DNA of 64,000 bases from Flavobacteriales bacterium (GTDB lineage: Bacteria; Bacteroidota; Bacteroidia; Flavobacteriales_F; PHOS-HE28). The notes below the pieces were generated by a model that made no database searches, had not been told where the DNA came from, and saw only the letters and a list, made by a program, of their open reading frames with translations. Made by a program: the position numbers and the translations under genes. This document shows positions 1 through 10,989 of the stretch, in pieces. The DNA is taken from positions 239,591 through 303,590 of the forward strand of contig JADJAA010000002.1 of NCBI GenBank assembly GCA_016704485.1, read 5' to 3'. Positions within the stretch are counted from its first letter, which is position 1, and the number at the start of each line of letters is the position of its first letter.

Positions 1-2165
1 TAGGAAGTACCCGCATTGTTCGTGATAGTGTCCGCGCCGATGAGGAGGCCATCGGGCCCCGTGCCGTGCACGAGCCGCACCGCGTAGCTGAAGGGTCCTT
101 CGATGCCGTAGAGCGATAGGATGAAACGCTCCAATCGTCCGCTGAAGGCTGGGGTGAAGGACTGCCACATAACGGTGCCTGGGGAAGCTGTGCCTTGTTC
201 GCCGGAGCTATAGCTGCCAAAGCCGGTGTTCTGGTCGGTGAAGGTGATAGTGTCCAACACTTCGTCGAAATAGTACCTGGCCATGTGCGCACCAAGGCCA
301 AGGGCCAATGGGTTAAGCAGGCTATCACGAATACCATCCACCGTGATGTATCCGCCGAACGGTTCGCCGGTCAGGATGAAGGGTTCAGCATTTATACAGA
401 GCGGCGCGTTGATGGCGGGAATACTGAGTACGGGTGCGGCGACCGTGATGATGGATAGTGTGGTGTCCGTGCAACCGAACGCGGTGTTGATGTAAGTGAG
501 TTCATGGGGGCCTTCACCGAGGGAGGCGGGTAAGAAACCATTCGTATTTACCCCTTCGATCCAGATCTCGGCATCCGGTGAGAAGTCATTGTCGCCGAAG
601 AGCCACACGGTATCAACCTCGCTCACGCAATAGGCATCGGCGAGGTTGAGCATGTAATGCGGCGGCACTTCGTAAAGGGAGTAGTAGCGGATAGCACTCT
701 GGCACGGTGGTAGGGCATTGACCCATGTGCGGAAGGCGGCATCGTGGTATGCATCCACGCTACTCGTGCCACGGGTGTAGTCGTAATAGGCCCAGTTGGT
801 ACCGAAGCTCAGCACTTGCCGGAAGGCATGTTCAGCGGTGAGTTCCACCGTGTACATGGTATCCGCGTTCCATGGAACCAGACTGCTGACGGGGAAGGTG
901 ATCCAACTTGTATCCATGATCGCGGGCGACGCGATCATGCTTTCGTGAAGGAGCACCGCACCGGCACCAACGCCGTGATATACACGCAGCGTGAAGTTGT
1001 TCGGCAAGCTATCGTGCAGCATGAATTCCACTTGCGTCAAACGACCGGTCTCGCCCGCGCGCACCGTTTGGCGAATGCTGTCCAAGAGCGCGTAACTGTA
1101 GGTATAGTTGCCGTAGTAGTCATACAGGGTGTACGACTGGTCGATGTGTTCCGAGCTATCCAACGGGAGGTCATTGGGTGAATACGTCACGGAATATTCG
1201 CCCGGAGTGTTCGGCGCATTCATCAACGTGGTGCCGCTCACCAAGGGTCCATCAAAAGTGCCGGGGCCAGGCGCAGCGGAGAGTTGGATGGAAGGATGGT
1301 TATGGCATTGGCGTGTGTCGAACGCATCGATGGCGATCGACACGGGATCTGAATGGAGATCGGTCTTCACGAAGTCCAGCACGTACTGCATCACCTGCGT
1401 TTGGCCGGTTGTAAAGAGGTTGTTGTCGCAGGGCGAATAGCACATGATGTTCGTTGTCTGCGGCATGTAGGGATCACCGTTCGCGTCGGTGCTGGTGCCG
1501 ATGTACGTGCAGTTGGCATAGTCGATCATCCCGGCCAATCCAAGGTTGGGATCTGCAGGCGTGTCGCAGATCTGGTCACCGCCGATGGTGCAGTTGGAAC
1601 CGTCCACCAGCTCGGCTTCGAACAATGCGTCGTGTGTATGCGGAAGGCCGAGCAAGTGACCGACCTCATGGGCCAGCACACGCGGGTTATCCGCGCCTTG
1701 CAGGAAGACCAAGTTGCCGAAGTTGAAGCCCGCCAAACCGTTGGGCAATAGTGCCACGTAAACCAACGTGACATAGCCCGGTTCGTAATACGGGTTCAGG
1801 ATCTCCGGGTCGAAGTTCCACAGCGCATAGAGGTTGTCGTTATCCACTACCTGCACCGGCCCACACAGCTCGAATTGGATGTCCGTGTTGTTCTGTGCGT
1901 AAAGCGCGTTCGTGCCATCGAGGTCGCGCTGCACCGCGCTGGTCGTTACAGCATCACCACCGGGCCCGCTCAGTGAGGCAATGATCACCTTCACCTTCAG
2001 GTAGCGCGTTCCACTGCGGCCGGGGTGATAGTTACGCGCTGCTTGAATGATTTCCGGGGAAACGGACGAGGTGCTGTTGCACCAGATACCGCTGGTCTGG
2101 GAGTGGAGCAAAAGCGGAAAGAGACTTTGAAGAACACCGACCAGGGCGAAGATGAGAAAGCGCAT
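1..2165 (-). CDS. Secreted metzincin zinc metalloprotease (M43 pappalysin/cytophagalysin-like); 3' end runs off window start
   Basis: Continuous reverse-strand frame from ATG at 2163-2165 (MRFLIFALVGVLQSLFPLLLHS signal peptide) down to position 1. Contains HEVGHLLGLPHTHD = HExxHxxGxxH metzincin zinc site. Absent from the ORF track because no stop lies inside the window. Plus-strand ORFs 195-1751 are antisense artefacts. Confidence 0.75.
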   Translation of the reverse strand, partial: MRFLIFALVGVLQSLFPLLLHSQTSGIWCNSTSSVSPEIIQAARNYHPGRSGTRYLKVKVIIASLSGPGGDAVTTSAVQRDLDGTNALYAQNNTDIQFELCGPVQVVDNDNLYALWNFDPEILNPYYEPGYVTLVYVALLPNGLAGFNFGNLVFLQGADNPRVLAHEVGHLLGLPHTHDALFEAELVDGSNCTIGGDQICDTPADPNLGLAGMIDYANCTYIGTSTDANGDPYMPQTTNIMCYSPCDNNLFTTGQTQVMQYVLDFVKTDLHSDPVSIAIDAFDTRQCHNHPSIQLSAAPGPGTFDGPLVSGTTLMNAPNTPGEYSVTYSPNDLPLDSSEHIDQSYTLYDYYGNYTYSYALLDSIRQTVRAGETGRLTQVEFMLHDSLPNNFTLRVYHGVGAGAVLLHESMIASPAIMDTSWITFPVSSLVPWNADTMYTVELTAEHAFRQVLSFGTNWAYYDYTRGTSSVDAYHDAAFRTWVNALPPCQSAIRYYSLYEVPPHYMLNLADAYCVSEVDTVWLFGDNDFSPDAEIWIEGVNTNGFLPASLGEGPHELTYINTAFGCTDTTLSIITVAAPVLSIPAINAPLCINAEPFILTGEPFGGYITVDGIRDSLLNPLALGLGAHMARYYFDEVLDTITFTDQNTGFGSYSSGEQGTASPGTVMWQSFTPAFSGRLERFILSLYGIEGPFSYAVRLVHGTGPDGLLIGADTITNNAGTS

Positions 2166-2560
2166 GTGTTCTATCACTGTCGATGGTGCTGGAGTGACGC
2201 GAAGATGCGGAAAGGAGTTGTCCGTTCGTGCTGCTGTGAGGAAAAGAATTTCAGGGCCACTTTACAACTCAACAAAGTCTACTACGCTTTGGTGGGGACC
2301 GTGCGGTCAAGACCAAGAACGCAAGGTCCTGAAGCGGTACCCTTGCGGAGAGTTAGTACACATGCGTGACGACAGTAATAAGGAAGTATACGAACAGTGA
2401 GCTGCAAAGGTTATCGATCACCTGGGCCAAGCAGCCGGAAAATGTACCTCGCAAGCTCCAGCGGGATGCGTGCGATCCATGGCCCAACTAGTAGCCCATT
2501 GCCTACAAGTAAGTGGTATTTAACAATGCGAGAAACATTTTGTTAAAGGATCACGCCATT

Positions 2561-2982
2561 TTCTTCTTTGTCTTTTTCATTTTCTCCTTTGTACTTGCGG
2601 CAAGTTCCTTTGTCTTTTTCATTTTCTCCTTTGTACTTGCGGCAAGTTCCTTTGTCTTTTTCATTTTCTCCTTTGCACTTGCGGCAAGTTCCTTTGTCTT
2701 TTTCATTTTCTCCTTTGTACTTGCGGCAAGTTCCTTTGTCTTTTTCATTTTCTCCTTTGTACTTGCGGCAAGTTCCTTTGTCTTTTTCATTTTCTCCTTT
2801 GTACTTGCGGCAAGTTCCTTTGTCTTTTTCATTTTCTCCTTTGCACTTGCGGCAAGTTCCTTTGTCTTTTTCATTTTCTCCTTTGTACTTGCGGCAAGTT
2901 CCTTTGTCTTTTTCATTTTCTCCTTTGCACTTGCGGCAAGTTCCTTTGTCTTTTTCATTTTCTCCTTTGTCTTTTTCATTTT
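2561..2982. repeat. 42-bp tandem repeat, ~10 copies (internal 21-bp periodicity of TCCTTTGT)
   Basis: The unit ttctcctttgtacttgcggcaagttcctttgtctttttcatt repeats head-to-tail. The only variation is T/C at gtacttgcgg versus gcacttgcgg. The 42 bp = 14 codons, so every frame gives a 14-aa periodic ORF (e.g. MKKTKELAASTKEK on the minus strand). Confidence 0.95.
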
Positions 2983-3375
2983 GGCAAAGCACTTTTTGGT
3001 TTTGCCCTCGCAATTGGCGGTGCTCTGCCCTCAAACCGGCGTTCTTCGCTGCCAAATAGCGTCGGCACGCGCCGTTTCGACCGGATTACTTCGTTTGCAG
3101 TGGGATCTTCATTTAACAGCCCCTCCGCGCCGTAAAGGAGGCTCCCGATTTCGAATACTTCAAGTCGGGACGGTCGGAGCTCACGATGGATCTTTCGGCG
3201 GAGTGGTCGGCTGGATGGCCGGAGGTCGGAATGACGATCGTGCCAGCCCCAACAGGACTGTGTTCCCTCTTGATCTATACGAAGAATGGGCTCCGTTTGG
3301 TGCATTTTGCGAAGGTGTAATGGGGAATAGGGTGGTGTAAGTGACTATGGGTCAGGCTGCTAAATGTGGCCCTAT

Positions 3376-3704
3376 GTTGACCTCATGTTCATGAACGTTG
3401 CCTCCCATGTTCATGAAGGTTGCCCTCACTGTTCATGAAGGTTGCCCTCACTGTTCATGAAGGTTGCCTTCACTGTTCATGAAGGTTGCCCTCACTGTTC
3501 ATGAAGGTTGCCCTCACTGTTCATGAAGGTTGCCCTCACTGTTCATGAACGTTGCCCTCACTGTTCATGAAGGTTGCCTCCCATGTTCATGAACGTTGCC
3601 CCTCATGTTCATGAAGGTTGCCTCCCATGTTCATGAACATTGCCCCTCATGTTCATGAAGGTTGCCTCCCATGTTCATGAACATTGCCCCTTAGGTTCAT
3701 GAAC
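3376..3704. repeat. 22-bp tandem repeat array A (~15 units, consensus GTTGCCCTCACTGTTCATGAAG)
   Basis: Direct head-to-tail 22-bp units. Variants ctccca/ccctca/ccttca and gaag/gaac alternate in places as a 44-bp higher-order repeat. 22 is not a multiple of 3, so the array is non-coding. Confidence 0.95.
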
Positions 3705-3968
3705 ATTGCCCACCATGTCATACGACATTGCCCACCATGTCGACTGTAGTTGCCCACCATGTCGACTGACGTTGCCCACCATGTCGACTGACGTTGCCCA
3801 CCATGTCGACTGACATTGCCCACCATGTCGACTGACATTGCCCACCATGTCGACTGACATTGCCCACCATGTCGACAGACATTGCCCACCATGTCGACTG
3901 ACGTTGCCCACCATGTCGACTGACATTGCCCACCATGTCGACTGACATTGCCCACCATGTCGACTGAC
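3705..3968. repeat. 22-bp tandem repeat array B (~12 units, consensus (A/G)TTGCCCACCATGTCGACTGAC)
   Basis: Contiguous with array A. Units share the (G/A)TTGCCC head, but the tail changes to ACCATGTCGACTGAC. Transitional units are visible at 3683-3748. Confidence 0.95.
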
Positions 3969-4209
3969 ATTGCCCACCACTACGACTGTAGTTGCCCACC
4001 ACTACGACTGTAGTTGCCCACCACTACGAGCGTAGTTGCCCACCACTACGACTGTAGTTGCCCACCACTACGACCGTAGTTGCCCACCACTACGACTGTA
4101 GTTGCCCACCACTACGACTGTAGGTGCCCATCACTACGACTGTAGTTGCCCGACACTACGCTTGTAGTTGCCCACCTCGACGACTGTAGTTGTCCAGCAC
4201 TACGCCTGA
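3969..4209. repeat. 22-bp tandem repeat array C (~11 units, consensus GTTGCCCACCACTACGACTGTA, decaying toward 4209)
   Basis: Contiguous with array B. The last units become progressively degenerate: ggtgcccatcac, gttgcccgacac, gttgtccagcac. Confidence 0.9.
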
Positions 4210-4499
4210 CCTTGCGCACGAGCGGGCCGTAAATGCCCGATATGTCCATAAACCCCTCGTATTGACGGCGGCCTCCGGTGGGTAAGGTTTCTTGGCCTCT
4301 TGGTTGGCTTGGGTTTGGGCTTTTGGTCCCTAGTCCAGTGGCTTCTGGCGTTGGCTGGTATGGTTGCCATGCCACAGGCAGGCCATAGGTTGAGGTGGTT
4401 GGTGGGTAGGTTGGTATTGAAGGGGCTAGCATAAGCTTCTCTCCTCAAGCACAGGAGTACCTGCCGGCCCGTATGTACTGCTCTGTGCCGAGCACTGCC

Positions 4500-6124
4500 G
4501 ACCTTGATCACATTATGGGGAAGGGAATCCCGTGCGAGTTGGGTACACGGCCCGGGCCACATGGGTGATACTTCCAGAGTATTGGCTTGGCCCGGGTGGG
4601 TAGACAACGCAGGGTCCCGAAGCGGAGACTTATTCTATGTTAAAAACAAGCATAACGTAAAGTTTTTTTCAGGCATTAGGACTCCAGCCATGAACCAAGG
4701 ATGAGGCCCACCCTTGATCCATGTTGTTGGCCGTTGCCATCATGCCTATCCCTGTTAGGTTGCTCTTCAGCAGAGCCTGCTTCCGTTTGGACACGACATA
4801 CGAAGTACGGCAATCCGATCAATTCTGCACTAATTGCCGCTGCTCATAGGGCCGGTTGTTGCGGATCACGGCGCAAACACAATGGATGATCTTATTACGG
4901 ACCGCATTGACAACCAATATCGGCTTCTTGCCTTCAGATACTTTGCGTTGGAAGTAGACCTTTAATTCTCCTTCGCGTTGCACGTTGGCAAGTGCAGCCA
5001 TGTGGAGCATGGTCTTAAGGATCTTGTTGGCTTGATGTGATACTTGCGTTCGTCCGCGAATACTGCTACCAGAACTACGCTCAAATGGAGCTACACCAGC
5101 ATGACATGCCAGTTCGCGTGGGTTCGTAAATCGATGGAAGCCATCGGTGAGCGCGATCAAATAGCTCGCTAATTGTGGGCCTACGCCGGGGATCGTGAGC
5201 AACAGGTTGTATTGTTCACTGGTTATATCATCGGCTTTGATCTGTGCCATGATCAGTTGCTCTACGCGTATCACGGCACGATCAGAAGCAACGATCAAAC
5301 GCTTGTCAAGTTGGTCGAACGCCTTTTTAATGTCCTTGTCCATGTAGCGGTTCAGGTCCGAGAGATGCTTCTTGTACATGGCTCTGACGCGAACCAAGTG
5401 TTGCCTACGTGTGAGCAGGTGCTTGAGTTTATCGAGCTTGAGGTTCTGTGCTGTGAACAAACGTGTTTTCTCTCGAAATGTGCGTGCGTATTGCGCGATC
5501 CGCAAAGCGTCCACTTTGTCGTTCTTCACACGCTTGATGCCCATGCTCTTTTGTATATCGAGCGGGTGCGCCAACCAAGCATGCCAGTGCTGCTCCACGA
5601 TCAGATTAAGCAACATCAACGTATAGTGCCCGGTAGGTTCCAAACACACTAGGCATTCCCCGGTGTCAACTCCGTATCGTTTCTTCCAGCTGTTCATTAG
5701 CGTCATTACGGCTGTACGACCATTGCTTACTTGCAAGCTCTCCAAGTGAACACCGTGTTCATCGAGCAATGCGAAATCCAAGGTTGCACTGCTCACATCG
5801 ATACCGATCCAATGCTTCATTTTCGTTTACTTTGAGGTTCAACAAATGATCGCTGTTGAGGCTGAGCGACAGGTCCGATGCTCCATGACTCTAATAGGCC
5901 CTTACGCCTAGCATTCTATCCGAGCCTTAGACCTGAGAAAGCCAGAGGTACCCATAAGTCTCTTAGGGGCTTTAACCCTAGCTGCGGAGTTGGTTCACCC
6001 CTGGCTTGGCTCAGTTCTCTTCAGTGATCTATCGACATCTAAGAAAATAGTTCCTTAGTGACGATGCAATACTAGAGCCTGCATAGGGTTAGTGGTCAAG
6101 TGGGCGTGAAGGCTCCGCGGCATC
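4500..6124 (-). mobile_element. IS110-family insertion sequence, approximate extent including non-coding flanks
   Basis: The transposase is flanked by about 300 bp of structured, GC-rich non-coding DNA on each side. The family has no terminal inverted repeats, so exact ends cannot be set by eye. Confidence 0.35.
4819..5820 (-). CDS. IS110-family transposase (DEDD N-terminal domain + IS116/IS110/IS902 C-terminal domain)
   Basis: 333-aa ORF with ATG start. N-terminus WIGIDVSSATLDFAL and C-terminal LLTIPGVGPQLASYLIALTDGFHRFTNPRELACHAGVAPFERSSGSS are both hallmark IS110-family transposase motifs. Confidence 0.85.
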   Translation of the reverse strand: MKHWIGIDVSSATLDFALLDEHGVHLESLQVSNGRTAVMTLMNSWKKRYGVDTGECLVCLEPTGHYTLMLLNLIVEQHWHAWLAHPLDIQKSMGIKRVKNDKVDALRIAQYARTFREKTRLFTAQNLKLDKLKHLLTRRQHLVRVRAMYKKHLSDLNRYMDKDIKKAFDQLDKRLIVASDRAVIRVEQLIMAQIKADDITSEQYNLLLTIPGVGPQLASYLIALTDGFHRFTNPRELACHAGVAPFERSSGSSIRGRTQVSHQANKILKTMLHMAALANVQREGELKVYFQRKVSEGKKPILVVNAVRNKIIHCVCAVIRNNRPYEQRQLVQN

Positions 6125-7399
6125 TTAATACGTTTGACCATCCGCCTTCAGAACCACAATACTTTCCCTTAGTGCTGGAACTTCCGTCGAATGTGCTTCA
6201 TGATTCCAATGTTGGCCTGAGCTACGTAAACGGCGAATGACCTGTACTTCCTGCGTAAGCCAACCTACCTTTTCAGCGATGTCCGCGAGGATAAAATCCA
6301 CGGGGATTACCACTCCGGCATATGCGGAGGTGCCAACGGCAATTTTTAGGACCGCATCTGGTTTTGCTCTGTTCCGAAGGTTCTTCAATAGTCCGGCCAT
6401 GTCTTCAAAGTAGGCTTGAATCATATTGGGGATGTTCGGATTCCAAAGTTGCTCCTTGCGCACAACTAACTCTTTGTATGCTTTTGCATAGTTGATACCG
6501 AAGTCGTCATTAAATGGCTTCGCCCAGGCTGCTTGCACATGCGACCGGACCGTTTGGAGCCGAATATTCATCAAGTCTGCGTTAGTGCGAACAAAACCGC
6601 CCAAGAAAAGCTCCGGCCTATAGACATCTGTGTAGTCGAAGGAGTTCAAGTAAGGCGGTGATGTGACACAGAGGTCGAACTTTCGTATATCCCTGTGTGT
6701 ACTGAGCCGCCGCGCATCCATGCGCTCAACACTGGACTTGGAACCAGATATTGGGGCTGCTACTACGTCCTCCTTCATCATAGCAATGTATGCCTCGTAT
6801 GCGCTGAGAAAAGAGGACGCATTGAATGACCGATAGTTGTCCATGCGCTTGTACCGGAGGCATTTGCCATCAGGATACGCATTACAATTATCCATGGCTG
6901 CCTTCATAAGCGCCAAACGGCTTAACGATCGCTCAGGACGTGCGAAACGTTTGGTGGAATCCCAGCCTCCCATGAAGGATCGAAGTACGGACCTGTTGAA
7001 TAGCCATTTACTCTTGCCTCCAGCTTGTGAGAAGGTGGAATAGGACTCAAGCGAAGTCTTCAGAGGCTGTCGAATGCCCTTGACCGTCCACTCAAACGCG
7101 TTTGAAAGGATACGGGGCGTTGATTGTTCAAGTTTGGCCTGACCAACAAAAGCGAGGAACGGATTTACTTCAAAGGCAAGGCACTCAACTCCACTTAAAG
7201 CATATTGCAGAGGACTAGTGCCGGAACCGCTGAAAGGCTCTATGGCGAAAATCCCATTCCGTGGTGTGTGATCGACCTCTGAAAGTGCGTCCGTAATTAG
7301 AGAAGCACTGAAGCCCTCCTTAATTGGGTACCATCGATGACGAGGCAACACCATGTTATCTACGGCATTGGTAATTGAGCGAACTGCATGTTTTGGCAT
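6125..7399 (-). CDS. DNA amino-methyltransferase (N6-adenine or N4-cytosine; SPPY motif IV), fourth gene of coupled operon
   Basis: 424 aa. Motif I IFAIEPFSGSGTSPL, acidic beta-2 end CLAFEVNP, motif IV LCVTSPPYLNSFDY. The ATG at 7397-7399 lies 2 bp after the upstream gene's stop at 7402-7404. Confidence 0.7.
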   Translation of the reverse strand: MPKHAVRSITNAVDNMVLPRHRWYPIKEGFSASLITDALSEVDHTPRNGIFAIEPFSGSGTSPLQYALSGVECLAFEVNPFLAFVGQAKLEQSTPRILSNAFEWTVKGIRQPLKTSLESYSTFSQAGGKSKWLFNRSVLRSFMGGWDSTKRFARPERSLSRLALMKAAMDNCNAYPDGKCLRYKRMDNYRSFNASSFLSAYEAYIAMMKEDVVAAPISGSKSSVERMDARRLSTHRDIRKFDLCVTSPPYLNSFDYTDVYRPELFLGGFVRTNADLMNIRLQTVRSHVQAAWAKPFNDDFGINYAKAYKELVVRKEQLWNPNIPNMIQAYFEDMAGLLKNLRNRAKPDAVLKIAVGTSAYAGVVIPVDFILADIAEKVGWLTQEVQVIRRLRSSGQHWNHEAHSTEVPALRESIVVLKADGQTY

Positions 7400-7401
7400 A
7401 C

Positions 7402-8466
7402 TTAGGCTTCTAAGAAAAGGCGGATTGGTTTTTCAAAGTCACTTCTTGTGGAATGGTAATCTGGGTTATAGGTGATTTCGCGTGTCGCAAAATGACATTG
7501 CTGTTTAGCTGTTAGTGATTTGGTGCTCGCCTTTACTCCATGGCGGCGACAGTCAAAAACAACGAGATAACCCAACGTGTCCGAAGCAGGACTATTTCGC
7601 TTGTGATTGTCAAGGTAATTCGCAAGTTGCTCTGCACCTTTATTTGCACGTGATTCGCCATAGTTGGCAGTGAATCTTGCACCATCACCACTACGGGATT
7701 TACCAATCCACTTAATTTCAATAAGTGCCTCTCTCGTAGACATCTGGGCTGTTAACTTGATGTCAATCGGATGGCTTTCATCGATATTTTGTTCGGGGCG
7801 AACCCAATAGTCATCAAAGCGCATACAACAGCGCAGGTAATGGCTAAGAGAGGTACGTAGCCGGTGTTCTGGTCCTGGCCCGAACCAGAAGCGTCTATCT
7901 GGATCTTGCCAAGCTTCCCGCAAAGTTGGGCATGTAGAGTGGCGAGCTAGGCTATGCCCGTAATCCAGCAGGGCTTCGCGCAGGTCATCAAAATGATGAA
8001 GCAGGAACTGACTTGGTGCCCCAGGTAGGAATTTGTCAACAGTCAGGCATTGTTCGCCAATCCGAAACTCCTCGACCTCTTGAACTAAACTGTAAACAAT
8101 AGCGTCGGTCTGGTTTTGAAGGGGTGAGTTTACATTCCCTTTCCAAAGAAATGCAGTTCCGTCTGGTCTTATCTCAATTGCTGCCAAATCGAGTACGCCG
8201 TTGATGGTTTTACCATTGAGAATTCGTTCGGCTTGGACAAGGCGCTTCTCATCAAGTTCCGAATGAATTCCTATTGGGGCAAAGACAGTGAGTTGCGTTT
8301 TTCGATTAACACGGCAGAACTGGCCTTGAATGCGAAGAAAGTTCAAGAGCTGTTTAAGCCGTGTGACACCCTCTTCACCAAACACCTCTTGAGCCTTTAT
8401 TAATGGCTGATTCGCCAATGCGCGATGCATGACGTCTGTATCAATTTTCCTAGTTGCTATGCTCAT
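7402..8466 (-). CDS. Hypothetical protein with PD-(D/E)xK-like nuclease motif (candidate restriction/effector nuclease), third gene of operon
   Basis: 354 aa. HPIDIKLTAQMSTREALIEIKWIGK gives D then E-x-K with 15-residue spacing, characteristic of the restriction-endonuclease fold. Its start overlaps the upstream gene's end by 17 bp. Confidence 0.5.
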   Translation of the reverse strand: MSIATRKIDTDVMHRALANQPLIKAQEVFGEEGVTRLKQLLNFLRIQGQFCRVNRKTQLTVFAPIGIHSELDEKRLVQAERILNGKTINGVLDLAAIEIRPDGTAFLWKGNVNSPLQNQTDAIVYSLVQEVEEFRIGEQCLTVDKFLPGAPSQFLLHHFDDLREALLDYGHSLARHSTCPTLREAWQDPDRRFWFGPGPEHRLRTSLSHYLRCCMRFDDYWVRPEQNIDESHPIDIKLTAQMSTREALIEIKWIGKSRSGDGARFTANYGESRANKGAEQLANYLDNHKRNSPASDTLGYLVVFDCRRHGVKASTKSLTAKQQCHFATREITYNPDYHSTRSDFEKPIRLFLEA

Positions 8467-9049
8467 GTGTTCGGCCTATGGTAAGCAAGTATTCAAGCCA
8501 AGCGGAGAGTGGGAGGGAAAGGTCACTACCTTGATAGGGTAGCAGTTCCCTGATTTCCCCAAATGTATCATGGAGTCTATCTACGATTGGATCACTGAAC
8601 AACCAAGCTGTTTGGGCGTGTCGCTTAATAAATGCAAGTGCGGGCTCGTAAGCAAAAGCTTCACGGATGACACTCGGTGTGAACAAGAGCAAGCAATCCG
8701 CTGCTCCGTTGAGGTAGGCTAACCTTTCTTGATTGATAGTGTGTTCCTTCCAAATACCTAGGTTGGTTTGTCCATCAGAAGTAATCTGTAGTAATTCTCC
8801 ATGATCCGTGATGTCACCTATACGTATACAGTAATCCAGTGCATCATCAAGGTTTTTCGAGAACGGCAAGCCTGATGGAGTGGAGCTAAATTCATATTCC
8901 CAATCTGAAACTGGTTTGCCTCCGTACAATGACAGCAGGCAGCTTGCGTAGGCAAGTAGGTGTAACTCTGATCTTGAGAAGCCCCTAACCGTTTGTGTCA
9001 GTCGTGAACCCAGTAGGAGCGAGTCAAAGTATGCTTGCGGACTGGTCAT
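8450..9049 (-). CDS. Hypothetical 199-aa protein (candidate 'middle component'), second gene of operon
   Basis: The ATG at 9047-9049 overlaps the ATPase stop at 9046-9048 (ATGA). No recognisable catalytic motifs. Predicted soluble. Confidence 0.6.
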   Translation of the reverse strand: MTSPQAYFDSLLLGSRLTQTVRGFSRSELHLLAYASCLLSLYGGKPVSDWEYEFSSTPSGLPFSKNLDDALDYCIRIGDITDHGELLQITSDGQTNLGIWKEHTINQERLAYLNGAADCLLLFTPSVIREAFAYEPALAFIKRHAQTAWLFSDPIVDRLHDTFGEIRELLPYQGSDLSLPLSAWLEYLLTIGRTHEHSN

Positions 9050-10989
9050 ATATTTCTGGAGTGTGCGAGTGCATCCAGCGCATTCAAGCGATTCTCAAAT
9101 TCTGCTTCATGCTTCTCTTGCACTTCAGACAGTTCGCGCCACTTATACAGGCGATGGAGTCCAAACCCGAGACTCGATTGCTTCGCAATCTCGGTGAGAA
9201 GTTCAGAAGTGTTGATGTTGGCTGTCATGAAGACAGGGTGTCCGTCATTGGCGAATTCAGCCACCATTTGTCCGGCTTGTGACTCATAAGCTAGATCAAG
9301 ACTGCCTTCTGGTGTATCTATGTAAAGGGGAGCTTTGATGGTATCTGATGAAACGTAGTTAGCTAGCGCCATTCTTAGTGCAATGTCGATGAAGAAGCGC
9401 TGACTTTCGGAGAGGTCATGCTCCGCATGTCGCTGTGTCTTCTTCACTGTTAGCGCCAGAGTAACACTCTTATCGCGCGTTTCGAGTTGGATATCTAAGT
9501 CGACACCCAGAAAGAGATTGGCTAAAGTGTTAAACTTAGGAACAAAGTCTTCCTGAATATTCAGGTATTCTTGCTCTAGCTTTTTTTGTATTTGCTTGTA
9601 AGCTTTAGAAGCTTCGGCACTTTTACTCTTCTGCTTCAAACGCTCCTTATCGATTTCGGCAATAGTTTTCTCATATGCTGCAATGACTTGATCATGATTA
9701 GCGTCCACCGGTCTGCCTCGGTTAACAACATCTCGATTTTGCTCTTCAAAGGCGTCAAGCTCTGTTTGCACAGTTTCAAGTGAACGTACGCGTATGTCAT
9801 TTTCGACATCAAGCTGAGTGATAAGGAGCACACTGGAATCGACACGCTTTTTCTGTTCGGCCAGTTCCTTATCAAGCTCTTTAAGGCGCTGGTGCACAGC
9901 TGCCGGAATGGTAGCCCGGTCAGTTGCAGCTTTGCACAGTGGACAAGTATGCTCCGCAATAGCCTTTTTTACAGGCTCTACAACTGCGATGCCCTCAGTA
10001 CCGCAAATAGCACATTTGTGCTCAATTAGTGCGAGCTGGATTGCGGGTGCGTTCTCTACTGAGTGCTTTGCCGTCACGCGTTCGCTGAACTCGCGTTGGT
10101 AGTCGTTTCGAATGACGGAAGCTCGTGCAGCGCCTTCAGCAAGCGCGAGTTTGGCATCGCGCAATTTGGTTTGAATTATATCGACCTCATTTGATCGTTC
10201 TTTCACTCGGTCAAGGAGTGTCTCAAATTCTTCATATGTGCTTGCCTCATCGTCTACAAGTTCATTCCCGCTGAGTACCTGTCTGAGGCTGTCAAGCCGA
10301 TCTTTTTGCTGTGTCATGTTCCAGCGCAGATTTCGAACCCTTGAATCCGCCTTTTCCATTTCACGTCTCAGTCTTTCCGCATCTGCCCGCTGTTCATTAT
10401 CAATTCCTACAAACAGAAGCAAGCAGGTTTCTAGAACTTTCGGATCCCAAAACAATAAATGACGTCGTTCATCAAAAGTGAGCACGAATGATTGGATGAA
10501 GACAAACTCCTTGAACGTTGAGAGTCCGATGTGCTGAGTTAATACGGCCTGATAATTTGCCTCCCGGTCTTCGGGTGTCATCTCATCAAAGTGCCTGGCA
10601 TCGTTTGTAATGACAAGTGACCGCAGCGCATCAGGTTCATCGAATCCTCGAATTAGCGTAATTGTTCGATCTCCGATTGTGAGTTCAAGTTCGATTTCTG
10701 CAATGTCACGGTCCTCAGGCTGTACACGCCCTTGAAAGTAGTCCTTGGAGAATCTTGAAATATCTCGGTAGTAATCATCAACGGATACGAACTTTTGTCC
10801 TGGGCGTGGAACAACTCCTGTTAGGCCGTAATTGATGATTTGGAAAAATGTAGATTTCCCAAGACCATTGGCCCCTGCAAGGCATGTCGTTCCAGGTTGG
10901 ATTGAAAATTCAATGTGGTCCTGAAGATTGTACAGCGAGAAGTGTGACAGTCGGATCCGGCGCACAATAGGGAAGTTAAGATGCCTCAT
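9046..10989 (-). CDS. Rad50/SMC-like ABC ATPase with coiled-coil insert and CxxC..CxxC zinc-hook-like site, first gene of operon
   Basis: 647 aa. N-terminal Walker A CLAGANGLGKSTF. A ~270-aa helical, charged central region contains KCAICGTEG and HTCPLCK. C-terminal signature-like LSESQRFFIDIALRMAL, Walker B/D-loop PLYIDTPEGSLD, and H-loop candidate NDGHPVF. Confidence 0.8.
   Translation of the reverse strand: MRHLNFPIVRRIRLSHFSLYNLQDHIEFSIQPGTTCLAGANGLGKSTFFQIINYGLTGVVPRPGQKFVSVDDYYRDISRFSKDYFQGRVQPEDRDIAEIELELTIGDRTITLIRGFDEPDALRSLVITNDARHFDEMTPEDREANYQAVLTQHIGLSTFKEFVFIQSFVLTFDERRHLLFWDPKVLETCLLLFVGIDNEQRADAERLRREMEKADSRVRNLRWNMTQQKDRLDSLRQVLSGNELVDDEASTYEEFETLLDRVKERSNEVDIIQTKLRDAKLALAEGAARASVIRNDYQREFSERVTAKHSVENAPAIQLALIEHKCAICGTEGIAVVEPVKKAIAEHTCPLCKAATDRATIPAAVHQRLKELDKELAEQKKRVDSSVLLITQLDVENDIRVRSLETVQTELDAFEEQNRDVVNRGRPVDANHDQVIAAYEKTIAEIDKERLKQKSKSAEASKAYKQIQKKLEQEYLNIQEDFVPKFNTLANLFLGVDLDIQLETRDKSVTLALTVKKTQRHAEHDLSESQRFFIDIALRMALANYVSSDTIKAPLYIDTPEGSLDLAYESQAGQMVAEFANDGHPVFMTANINTSELLTEIAKQSSLGFGLHRLYKWRELSEVQEKHEAEFENRLNALDALAHSRNI

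Follow-up and report, generated by a model that had tools for sequence, protein, structure and literature searches.

The closest described element to the array reported here is BrickBuilt of Porphyromonas gingivalis, an intergenic minisatellite or MITE (a miniature transposable element with inverted repeats) built of spacerless 23-nt units (Klein et al. 2015, PMC4596501). Our array lies in a 64-kb window, meaning the whole stretch that was analyzed (64,000 nucleotides of contig JADJAA010000002.1 from an uncultured Flavobacteriales bacterium of wastewater; positions below are those of the window), and consists of an 836-bp run of 38 head-to-tail 22-bp units at 3375-4210, with no spacers when the units are read in register. 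We favor, with moderate confidence, the view that it is a non-coding chromosomal minisatellite without demonstrated sequence-specific function. Likened by description, the two elements share much. Both belong to Bacteroidota, are strictly intergenic, and are made of spacerless units of about two helical turns (23 nt in BrickBuilt, 22 bp here); their units are imperfect, with a conserved first part, a variable second part, and dyad symmetry that leads to predicted stem-loops. Neither has a match in Rfam, and in both cases annotation pipelines have placed spurious open reading frames (ORFs) on the arrays. BrickBuilt differs in having a leader and a tail with terminal inverted repeats and in being dispersed as 19 copies per genome, whereas no leader, tail, convincing terminal inverted repeat, or second copy was found here in the DNA sampled. 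Further, our 38 units fall into discrete sub-families, against 22.8 units in the largest BrickBuilt array, and their number is constant, while BrickBuilt copy number varies between strains. Though BrickBuilt is the closest described element, we do not file the array as a BrickBuilt-type MITE.

Among prokaryotic satellites more broadly, most are short and many are coding, and dispersed non-coding families of long repeats were seen only in Leptospira interrogans and Methanocella conradii among the reference genomes studied (Subirana and Messeguer 2019, PMC6749651). The present array resembles such satellites as a non-coding tandem repeat of a bacterial chromosome, and its 836 bp put it at the long end.

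Plasmid and phage iterons and ParR-type centromeres (parC of R1 and pSK41) are direct head-to-tail repeats of about 20-22 bp, often with internal dyads, and the sets are typically short, near-identical, and found beside the gene of their binder on a plasmid or phage. In contrast, the array described here has 38 diverged units in at least four sub-families, sits in a chromosomal housekeeping context, and shows no partner gene in the window and no match in plasmid or phage collections. Repetitive extragenic palindromic sequences and bacterial interspersed mosaic elements (REP/BIME) are short extragenic dyad units that can cluster, but they are dispersed genome-wide, singly or in small inverted clusters, and insertion sequences (IS) of the IS110 family often target REP-like sequences. 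Here, there are 38 direct head-to-tail copies, and the IS110-family element in the window lies 415 bp away, beside a different motif (CGCTTCGRGACCCTGCG). CRISPR arrays share short repeats, partial dyad symmetry, and proximity to defense genes; however, unique spacers are absent over the 836 bp, the unit is 22 bp, and cas genes are absent from the 64 kb. A preliminary description of this DNA, made from its letters alone, had already set CRISPR aside, and the abutting units and the lack of cas genes bear this out. Nor is there, within the window, the adjacent operon of ParA or ParM with ParB or ParR that accompanies a partition site. The array lacks the features tested as defining a CRISPR array, an iteron set, a partition site, or a contingency locus.

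Results

Anatomy of the array

Tandem Repeats Finder (TRF) reports three overlapping period-22 arrays, at 3376-3711, 3703-4023, and 3728-4208, with scores of 427-486. Listing the units in register resolves these into the parts given below, none of which is assigned a strand.

3375-4210: compound 22-bp minisatellite of 38 units (TRF, register listing, and 836 bp in eight assemblies)
3375-3418: two left-edge variant or degenerate units, TGTTGACCTCATGTTCATGAAC and GTTGCCTCCCATGTTCATGAAG (register listing)
3419-3572: sub-array A-main, seven units of GTTGCCCTCACTGTTCATGAAG
3573-3704: sub-array A-variant, six units, GTTGCCTCCCATGTTCATGAAC alternating with RTTGCCCCTCATGTTCATGAAG
3705-3748: two transitional units, starting at 3705 and 3727
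3749-3968: sub-array B, 10 units of RTTGCCCACCATGTCGACTGAC
3969-4122: sub-array C, seven units of GTTGCCCACCACTACGACTGTA
4123-4210: four right-edge C-type units, progressively degenerate

The preliminary description had reported about 38 direct head-to-tail repeats of 22 bp, drifting in three stages from one tail sequence to the next. The count and the three tail sequences are both correct, and the stages are real, though the first is made up of two sub-families, A-main and A-variant, and the array is degenerate at both ends (3375-3418 and 4123-4210). Alternation within A-variant forms a 44-bp higher-order repeat across 3573-3704, and this sub-array holds a perfect 14-bp palindrome, ATGTTCATGAACAT. 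Intermediate units were likewise found where they had been claimed, at the junctions: these are the units at 3705 and 3727, the latter being a B/C hybrid (ATGTC-GACT-GTAGT) with a 5′ arm of B type and a 3′ arm of C type. The head (G/A)TTGCCC, said to be shared by the units, is present in 30 of the 38, the others reading GTTGCCT, GGTGCCC, or GTTGTCC. Allowing ≤3 mismatches, there are 11 occurrences of the type-B 21-mer, where 0.00 would be expected. With 10.5 bp to the turn, successive 22-bp units are offset by ~34 degrees, and the proposal that all units present the same DNA face, two turns apart, holds only approximately.

Stop codons occur in all frames on both strands of types A and C, as read from the units, and the array as a whole therefore cannot encode protein. 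A coding repeat was rejected on these grounds, as only the minus strand of type B is open (ORFs of 94-105 aa), with A and C stopped throughout. Within the arrays, there is no sigma-70-like promoter, no Bacteroidota −7 motif (TAnnTTTG), and no terminator-like site. A search of Rfam 15 gave 0 matches at the gathering score and only far-sub-threshold matches to microRNA models, the best of them at 25 bits to a model with a gathering score of 81. A replication origin was also rejected: the dnaA gene is absent and no V-shaped cumulative skew is centered on the array, though DnaA boxes were not searched.

Length of the array across assemblies

The 22-bp array is exactly 836 bp long in eight assemblies, comprising the window, four metagenome-assembled genomes (MAGs; GCA_963852075.1, GCA_016718615.1, GCA_016707465.1, and GCA_016708985.1), and three metagenome contigs of the Joint Genome Institute (JGI). 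At least one indel separates the window from each MAG, making it a further assembly. Across all eight, only two substitutions were seen in the array, both in a single MAG. The MAGs JADJER and JADJHO come from two different Danish treatment plants, belong to one species cluster (GTDB Flavobacteriales, family and genus PHOS-HE28), and were assembled with CANU from Nanopore reads of ≥4 kb (Singleton et al. 2021, PMC8012365). Tandem repeats are a known source of mis-assembly, and the preliminary description had named an assembly artifact as what would undo it. However, the same 836 bp recur in the window, the four MAGs, and the three JGI contigs, and an identical array in separate Nanopore MAGs from different plants refutes the artifact hypothesis, which we now regard as vanishingly improbable.

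These lengths also bear on whether the array is a contingency (phase-variable) locus, at which gain or loss of units would switch or tune a neighboring gene. Tandem repeats are classic substrates for slippage, and a second, 42-bp array nearby measures 252 bp rather than 420 bp in one contig, but that lone difference comes from a short-read assembly, in which collapse is likely. The 22-bp array is 836 bp in 8/8 assemblies, and hypervariability was not seen in the sampled population, which is close to clonal (99.6-99.98% identity over 14.4 kb). The first gene start downstream, the ATG of an M43 peptidase gene, is more than 1.2 kb from the array, and the proximal motif of that gene is conserved in relatives without the array. 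The hypervariable contingency locus entertained in the preliminary description is thus largely refuted for the sampled population, and we consider it highly improbable.

An internal dyad and its possible origin

After a two-base rotation of the register, most units resolve into four parts: a linker of 8 nt (TGCCCACC or nearly so), a 5-nt arm, 4 nt of spacer, and a second 5-nt arm complementary to the first. Arms are ATGTT/AACAT in A-variant units, ATGTC/GACAT in type B, and ACTAC/GTAGT in type C. Type B is laid out as TGCCCACC, ATGTC, GACT, and GACAT or GACGT; type C as TGCCCACC, ACTAC, GACT, and GTAGT. The seven A-main units of the 38 lack the 5-4-5 dyad and have an imperfect CCCTCA/TGAAGG inverted repeat in its place. 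In C-type units (n = 10, counted by hand), changes affect 3/100 arm, 5/40 spacer, and 3/80 linker positions, making the spacer the most variable part on what are small numbers. Arm sequences of B and C differ at three of five positions. The dyad, present in most units, had not been recorded in the preliminary description, and neither had the 42-bp array at 2566-2985 nor the IS110 element at 4626-6082.

Under the minisatellite interpretation, the array would have arisen in a variable, defense-gene-rich intergenic gap between the M43 peptidase gene and a Lamassu-like operon with a methyltransferase. Replication slippage or unequal exchange would then amplify and homogenize blocks of neighboring units, producing the stepwise succession of A-main, A-variant, B, and C, the 44-bp higher-order repeat, and the decay at both edges. 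In satellites generally, block structure, higher-order alternation, and degenerate edges are what these two processes are expected to generate. For the dyad, in turn, the most economical account would be intrastrand template switching (quasipalindrome correction), by which one arm is copied onto the other. From the hybrid unit at 3727, a single event could produce either type: type B if the right arm were overwritten by a copy of the left, type C if the left were overwritten by a copy of the right. Each product would have been amplified afterwards. Such switching has been documented as a means by which hairpin arms arise and persist, with substitutions that seem compensatory (PMC8794818). This mutational route could account for the dyad in fewer events than selection, with no selection needed.

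Folding of the dyad was examined for single units, for longer stretches, and by strand. Single-unit hairpins are weak, at −1.7 to −3.0 kcal/mol as DNA (z −0.8 to −1.7), and stretches of four units from B and C show no better folding than shuffled sequence (z −0.45 to −2.0). The A-variant region reaches z −4.4 to −5.3 and the minus strand of A-main z −4.85, the A region standing out because of its 10-14-bp palindrome. In type B, an A/G polymorphism at unit position 1 retains A-U or G-U pairing on the plus strand. G:T wobble pairs point to the plus strand for type B and to the minus strand for A-main, so that no single RNA strand is favored.

An array transcribed as tandem small stem-loops, separated by UUGCCCACC, might serve as a sponge for an RNA-binding protein or small RNA, or, downstream of the defense operon, as a terminator or insulator made of clustered hairpins. 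Such an RNA would fit with the both-sided changes in the arms, the conserved single-stranded linker, the pairing kept at position 1 of type B, and the better-than-shuffled folding of A-variant and of the A-main minus strand. It fits poorly with the B and C stretches, which fold no better than shuffles, with unit hairpins that are marginal, with wobbles that point to opposite strands depending on the sub-array, and with the absence of both a promoter-like site and an Rfam match. We consider a transcribed hairpin array quite improbable.

The non-coding gap and neighboring genes

Both arrays lie in a non-coding gap of ~4 kb (2166-6124). The features within and beside it are as follows.

1-2165, minus strand: M43 zinc metalloprotease gene, 891 aa in full, ATG at 2165
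2566-2985, no strand: second array, 42-bp unit repeated ~10 times (9.6 by TRF), 390 bp left of the 22-bp array
2986-3374, no strand: unique non-coding spacer between the arrays, with only a 25-bp chance-level match among fetched loci
4211-4625, no strand: unique non-coding stretch from the 22-bp array to the IS end
4626-6082, minus strand: IS110-family insertion sequence of 1,457 bp, transposase at 4819-5820 (Pfam PF01548/PF02371)
6125-10989, minus strand: four-gene defense-type operon (PADLOC, Pfam)

The 42-bp unit of the second array consists of two 21-bp half-units with a common head, CTTTGT, and contains the palindrome ACTTGCgGCAAGT. A K/E-rich ORF of 142 aa has been called on this array, at 2551-2979 on the minus strand. 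Because four of the six frames there are open, the call is not evidence of coding, and a search of 1.84 billion representatives returned only compositional matches to large unrelated proteins; the ORF was set aside as uninformative. The array measures 420 bp in the window, L168, and L171, 418 bp in L169, and 252 bp in the short-read contig L134, where short-read collapse is likely.

The M43 peptidase gene is preceded by a CGGACAAC-N17-CGCGTCA motif 30-70 nt before its ATG (window positions ~2190-2240, minus strand), which is common to four genomes, including L143, L144, and L145. By its spacing and sequence, we take this motif to resemble a promoter of the extracytoplasmic function (ECF) sigma type, and the peptidase gene thus has a putative proximal control element of its own. 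Since the motif is kept in relatives without the array, control of the peptidase gene by the array was rejected; the array also lies more than 1.2 kb from the peptidase ATG.

On the other side, the operon encodes an LmuB-like SMC-type ATPase (647 aa), proteins of 199 aa and 354 aa, and a type II DNA methyltransferase (424 aa). The 199-aa and 354-aa proteins have no Pfam or PADLOC match. The four genes may represent a Lamassu variant with an attached methyltransferase. The module is conserved as a block in the Flavobacteriales MAG L176 (3997-8858), with a methyltransferase that is 76% identical, and there it sits between hsdM and hsdR of a type I restriction system. That the array travels with the operon was rejected, as the L176 module has no such array downstream and instead a different 21-bp array 1.3 kb upstream.

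The IS110 element starts 415 bp right of the 22-bp array. Its ends were mapped from ten copies (L001-L010, in the same and sister genomes), and it is multi-copy in these genomes. Sister genomes show six or more distinct insertion sites; most are followed by the motif (Y)CGCTTCGRGACCCTGCG, which resembles a REP-like target. The transposase ATG is preceded by ~260 nt of non-coding sequence, presumably the location of the bridge RNA expected in this family. A link between the IS and the array was rejected, with ten other IS copies lacking arrays and the IS targeting a different motif; the element is an incidental neighbor.

The rest of the window is ordinary chromosome, encoding Lon, ribosomal protein S1, IspH, cytidylate kinase (Cmk), QueA, PyrB, transporters, and proteins secreted by the type IX secretion system. 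Pfam scans of ~50 ORFs found no Rep, Par (ParA, ParB, ParR, or ParM), Cas, integrase, or phage genes in the 64-kb window, so the absence of rep and par genes that had been reported near the array extends to the whole of it.

Relatives and similar arrays elsewhere

Orthologues of the M43 peptidase are found at 62-79% identity in many Flavobacteriales MAGs. In three relatives (70-73% identity), the region upstream of the peptidase gene is short (80-340 bp), with neither an array nor upstream synteny. Judged from this comparison, the arrays are a lineage-specific insertion into a variable, defense-gene-rich region. With blastn (word size 11), no match to the array was found in 72,556 plasmids or 50,697 phage records, and neither the remainder of the window nor five distinct 13-kb loci from this species contain a second copy. 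A scan of a genome collection for TTGCCC at 22-bp spacing yielded at least 120 arrays, mostly unrelated; a metagenome scan for the GACT-loop pattern returned only this same locus and unrelated 3-copy repeats, and a viral scan only unrelated, mostly short arrays. Among the matches listed, the only truly similar array elsewhere is in L016, a 1,967-bp activated-sludge contig binned as Planctomycetales. Its unit, GTTGCCCTCACCTACGACTGTRG, combines an A-type head with a C-type tail, its flanks are unrelated, and the neighboring gene encodes a Schlafen-group-3-like helicase.

The array of L016 is relevant to whether ours is the core of a MITE-like, non-autonomous mobile element with leader, tail, and terminal inverted repeats, present at several sites. 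In favor are this closely related array with unrelated flanks, a unit design that fits the description of BrickBuilt (PMC4596501), and a 13/14 inverted match (2419-2432 and 4585-4598) that brackets both arrays. However, a match of this kind is close to chance in 2.5 kb (roughly 0.5 expected, by our estimate), and the neighboring inverted match I11 is not collinear with it. Searching for a leader and tail, by blastn of the flanks 2166-2565, 2986-3374, and 4211-4625 against all fetched loci, returned nothing, and no second copy occurs in the same-species DNA sampled. A mobile element of the BrickBuilt type is therefore very doubtful.

Arrays with a 22-bp period are common in bacteria, conspicuously so in Bacteroidales, some of which have clear 16-bp palindromes every 22 bp (TGAGTTGCCCAACTCA). 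Dyads are enriched in such arrays, with arms of ≥5 bp in 40 of 104 listed, compared with ~12 in shuffles; this set was selected on TTGCCC, and head conservation within it is meaningless. In phage contigs, most repeat sets of 22-bp period number ~3-9 copies and one reaches 17; our array is, as had been remarked, far longer than a usual iteron set.

These comparisons speak to a binding platform of the iteron or centromere kind, as suggested in the preliminary description. In this case each unit would be bound by a protein, either as a dimer at the dyad or as a monomer at TTGCCCACC, making the platform multivalent, with the 22-bp spacing giving rise to an iteron-, ParR-centromere-, or operator-like nucleoprotein filament that could silence, insulate, or organize the adjacent defense island. 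The fixed 22-bp period, the head conserved in 30/38 units, and the dyad kept in A-variant, B, and C units all stand in its favor, together with the general dyad enrichment, the Bacteroidales palindromes, and the 22-bp-period sets of phage contigs. Set against these, the 64 kb contain no Rep, ParA, ParB, ParR, integrase, or nearby regulator gene, and there is no plasmid or phage similarity. The 38 units are several-fold above most of the phage-contig arrays found, and relatives lack the array at this locus. Moreover, the A-main units have no dyad, and with three of five arm positions differing between B and C, one sequence-specific dimer could not read both. We consider a binding platform unlikely, though more plausible than a mobile element or a hairpin RNA.

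The scans also returned two groups of unrelated repeats. In gut Bacteroides and Parabacteroides (L017, L033, L092, L103, L107, and L129), short arrays carry a 14-16-bp palindrome, (T)GAGTTGCCCAACTC(A), every 22 bp, with a variable spacer of 6-8 bp between palindromes and sub-arrays that drift stepwise; these look like putative operator-type arrays of binding sites and are seemingly undescribed. In three genomes (L030, L041, and L109) and three viral contigs (L156, L158, and L160), 22-bp repeats of four to five copies at 89-100% identity have TTGCCCTARGWAGCGTAAC in common; these genome and phage contigs are otherwise unrelated, and the repeats would fit a conserved iteron family belonging to a phage or plasmid replicon.

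Arrays beside peptidase orthologues

Tandem arrays of related period occur near peptidase orthologues, and in one relative of the methyltransferase operon, as follows.

L143, 459-925: 22 bp × 21, unit GTGGTGGAGCACCTAGTGCTAA
L146, 4797-4908: 42 bp × 2.7
L178, 18840-19277: 21 bp × 21
L179, 15952-16538: arrays of period 21, 42, or 63 bp
L180, 19010-19976: arrays of period 21, 42, or 63 bp
L176, 906-1339: 21 bp × 21 (relative of the methyltransferase operon)

Units of L176 and L178 are ~17/21 identical, and the local gene order matches, with a 210-220-aa gene, the array, and a LuxR-type response regulator. Genes neighboring the peptidase-linked arrays in relatives encode McrBC, a TIR-domain protein, PemK, and DUF559, and type I restriction-modification is also among the defense genes. 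ORFs over the 21- and 42-bp arrays are uninformative because a 21-bp unit repeats the same seven codons and most frames are open. The terminal unit of L143 (GTTGCCGAGCAC...) begins GTTGCC. An apparent match of the L143 unit to the type-C minus strand, over AGTGGTGG, was dropped, as this terminal unit shows the comparable orientation to be plus. Elsewhere in L143, 2.2 kb (1351-3576) have no called gene but hold two overlapping ORFs that both match peptidase M20, and these are probably one gene split by a frameshift, whether as a pseudogene or through a Nanopore indel error.

Discussion

Of the three options left open by the preliminary description, a binding platform, a contingency locus, or selfish satellite DNA, a selfish or neutral satellite is the best supported. 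The non-coding status of types A and C, the block structure with its hybrid and decayed edges, the absence of an array at the orthologous site in relatives, and the lack of companion genes are all in keeping with a chromosomal minisatellite, for which we infer a history of slippage and template switching and no sequence-specific cellular function. The same view is favored by the lack of promoter, terminator, and Rfam matches in the arrays, the weak single-unit hairpins, the wobble pairs that favor no one strand, the A-main units without the dyad, the unrelated flanks of L016, the absence of plasmid and phage matches, and the precedent of BrickBuilt.

Several observations weigh against this interpretation. 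The first concerns the dyad. In an alignment of 27 distinct units from the window and the related array of L016, the arms pair in 81.5% of cells, compared with 62.7% in shuffles (0/500 of which reach 81.5%) and 28-43% in most slid controls, and both-sided changes are present at four of the five dyad pairs; as the units descend from one another, these statistics represent about four independent events or fewer. The excess of pairing could reflect selection for a structure or a palindrome. Second, the (R)TTGCCC head, which forms part of the linker, is kept across all unit types (30/38) and in L016, another organism, and such conservation exceeds what pure drift predicts. Third, perfect length stability in eight assemblies is unusual for a freely slipping array, although these sample a nearly clonal population. 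Last, arrays of period 21, 22, or 42 lie within ~10 kb of a peptidase orthologue in six of the eight genomes examined, while none (≥2.5 copies) was found in ~114 kb of other same-species DNA, a control made up of the remaining window sequence and five distinct loci flanking IS copies. By this crude count (roughly p = 0.03), a non-random association of the arrays with the peptidase and defense neighborhood is suggestive, not established.

Taken further, these points would make the 21-22-bp arrays, and their 42-bp dimers, a recurrent functional component of a defense-island hotspot beside the M43 peptidase gene in PHOS-HE28-type Flavobacteriales. As multivalent platforms for binding or recombination, the arrays would then insulate, silence, or help exchange defense cassettes, with the TTGCCC(ACC) linker as the read-out element and the dyad as a structural feature under selection. 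The cassettes in question could be the Lamassu-like, McrBC, TIR, type I restriction-modification, and Schlafen-like helicase genes. A literature search for tandem arrays as components of defense islands found nothing relevant, and we regard such a role as speculative and improbable at present.

Bacteria rarely carry long non-coding tandem arrays, which have received essentially no study, and BrickBuilt, the one characterized relative that we found, is itself of unestablished function. For now, the array is a curiosity without demonstrated function. It is, nonetheless, a clean, long-read-verified addition to the poorly understood non-coding minisatellites of bacteria. Its internal history is legible, through sub-families, a hybrid unit, and both-sided changes in the arms, and offers a natural test of template switching versus selection on short dyads. 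Should the association with defense hotspots hold up in a genome-wide census, arrays of this kind would merit attention as components of these islands.

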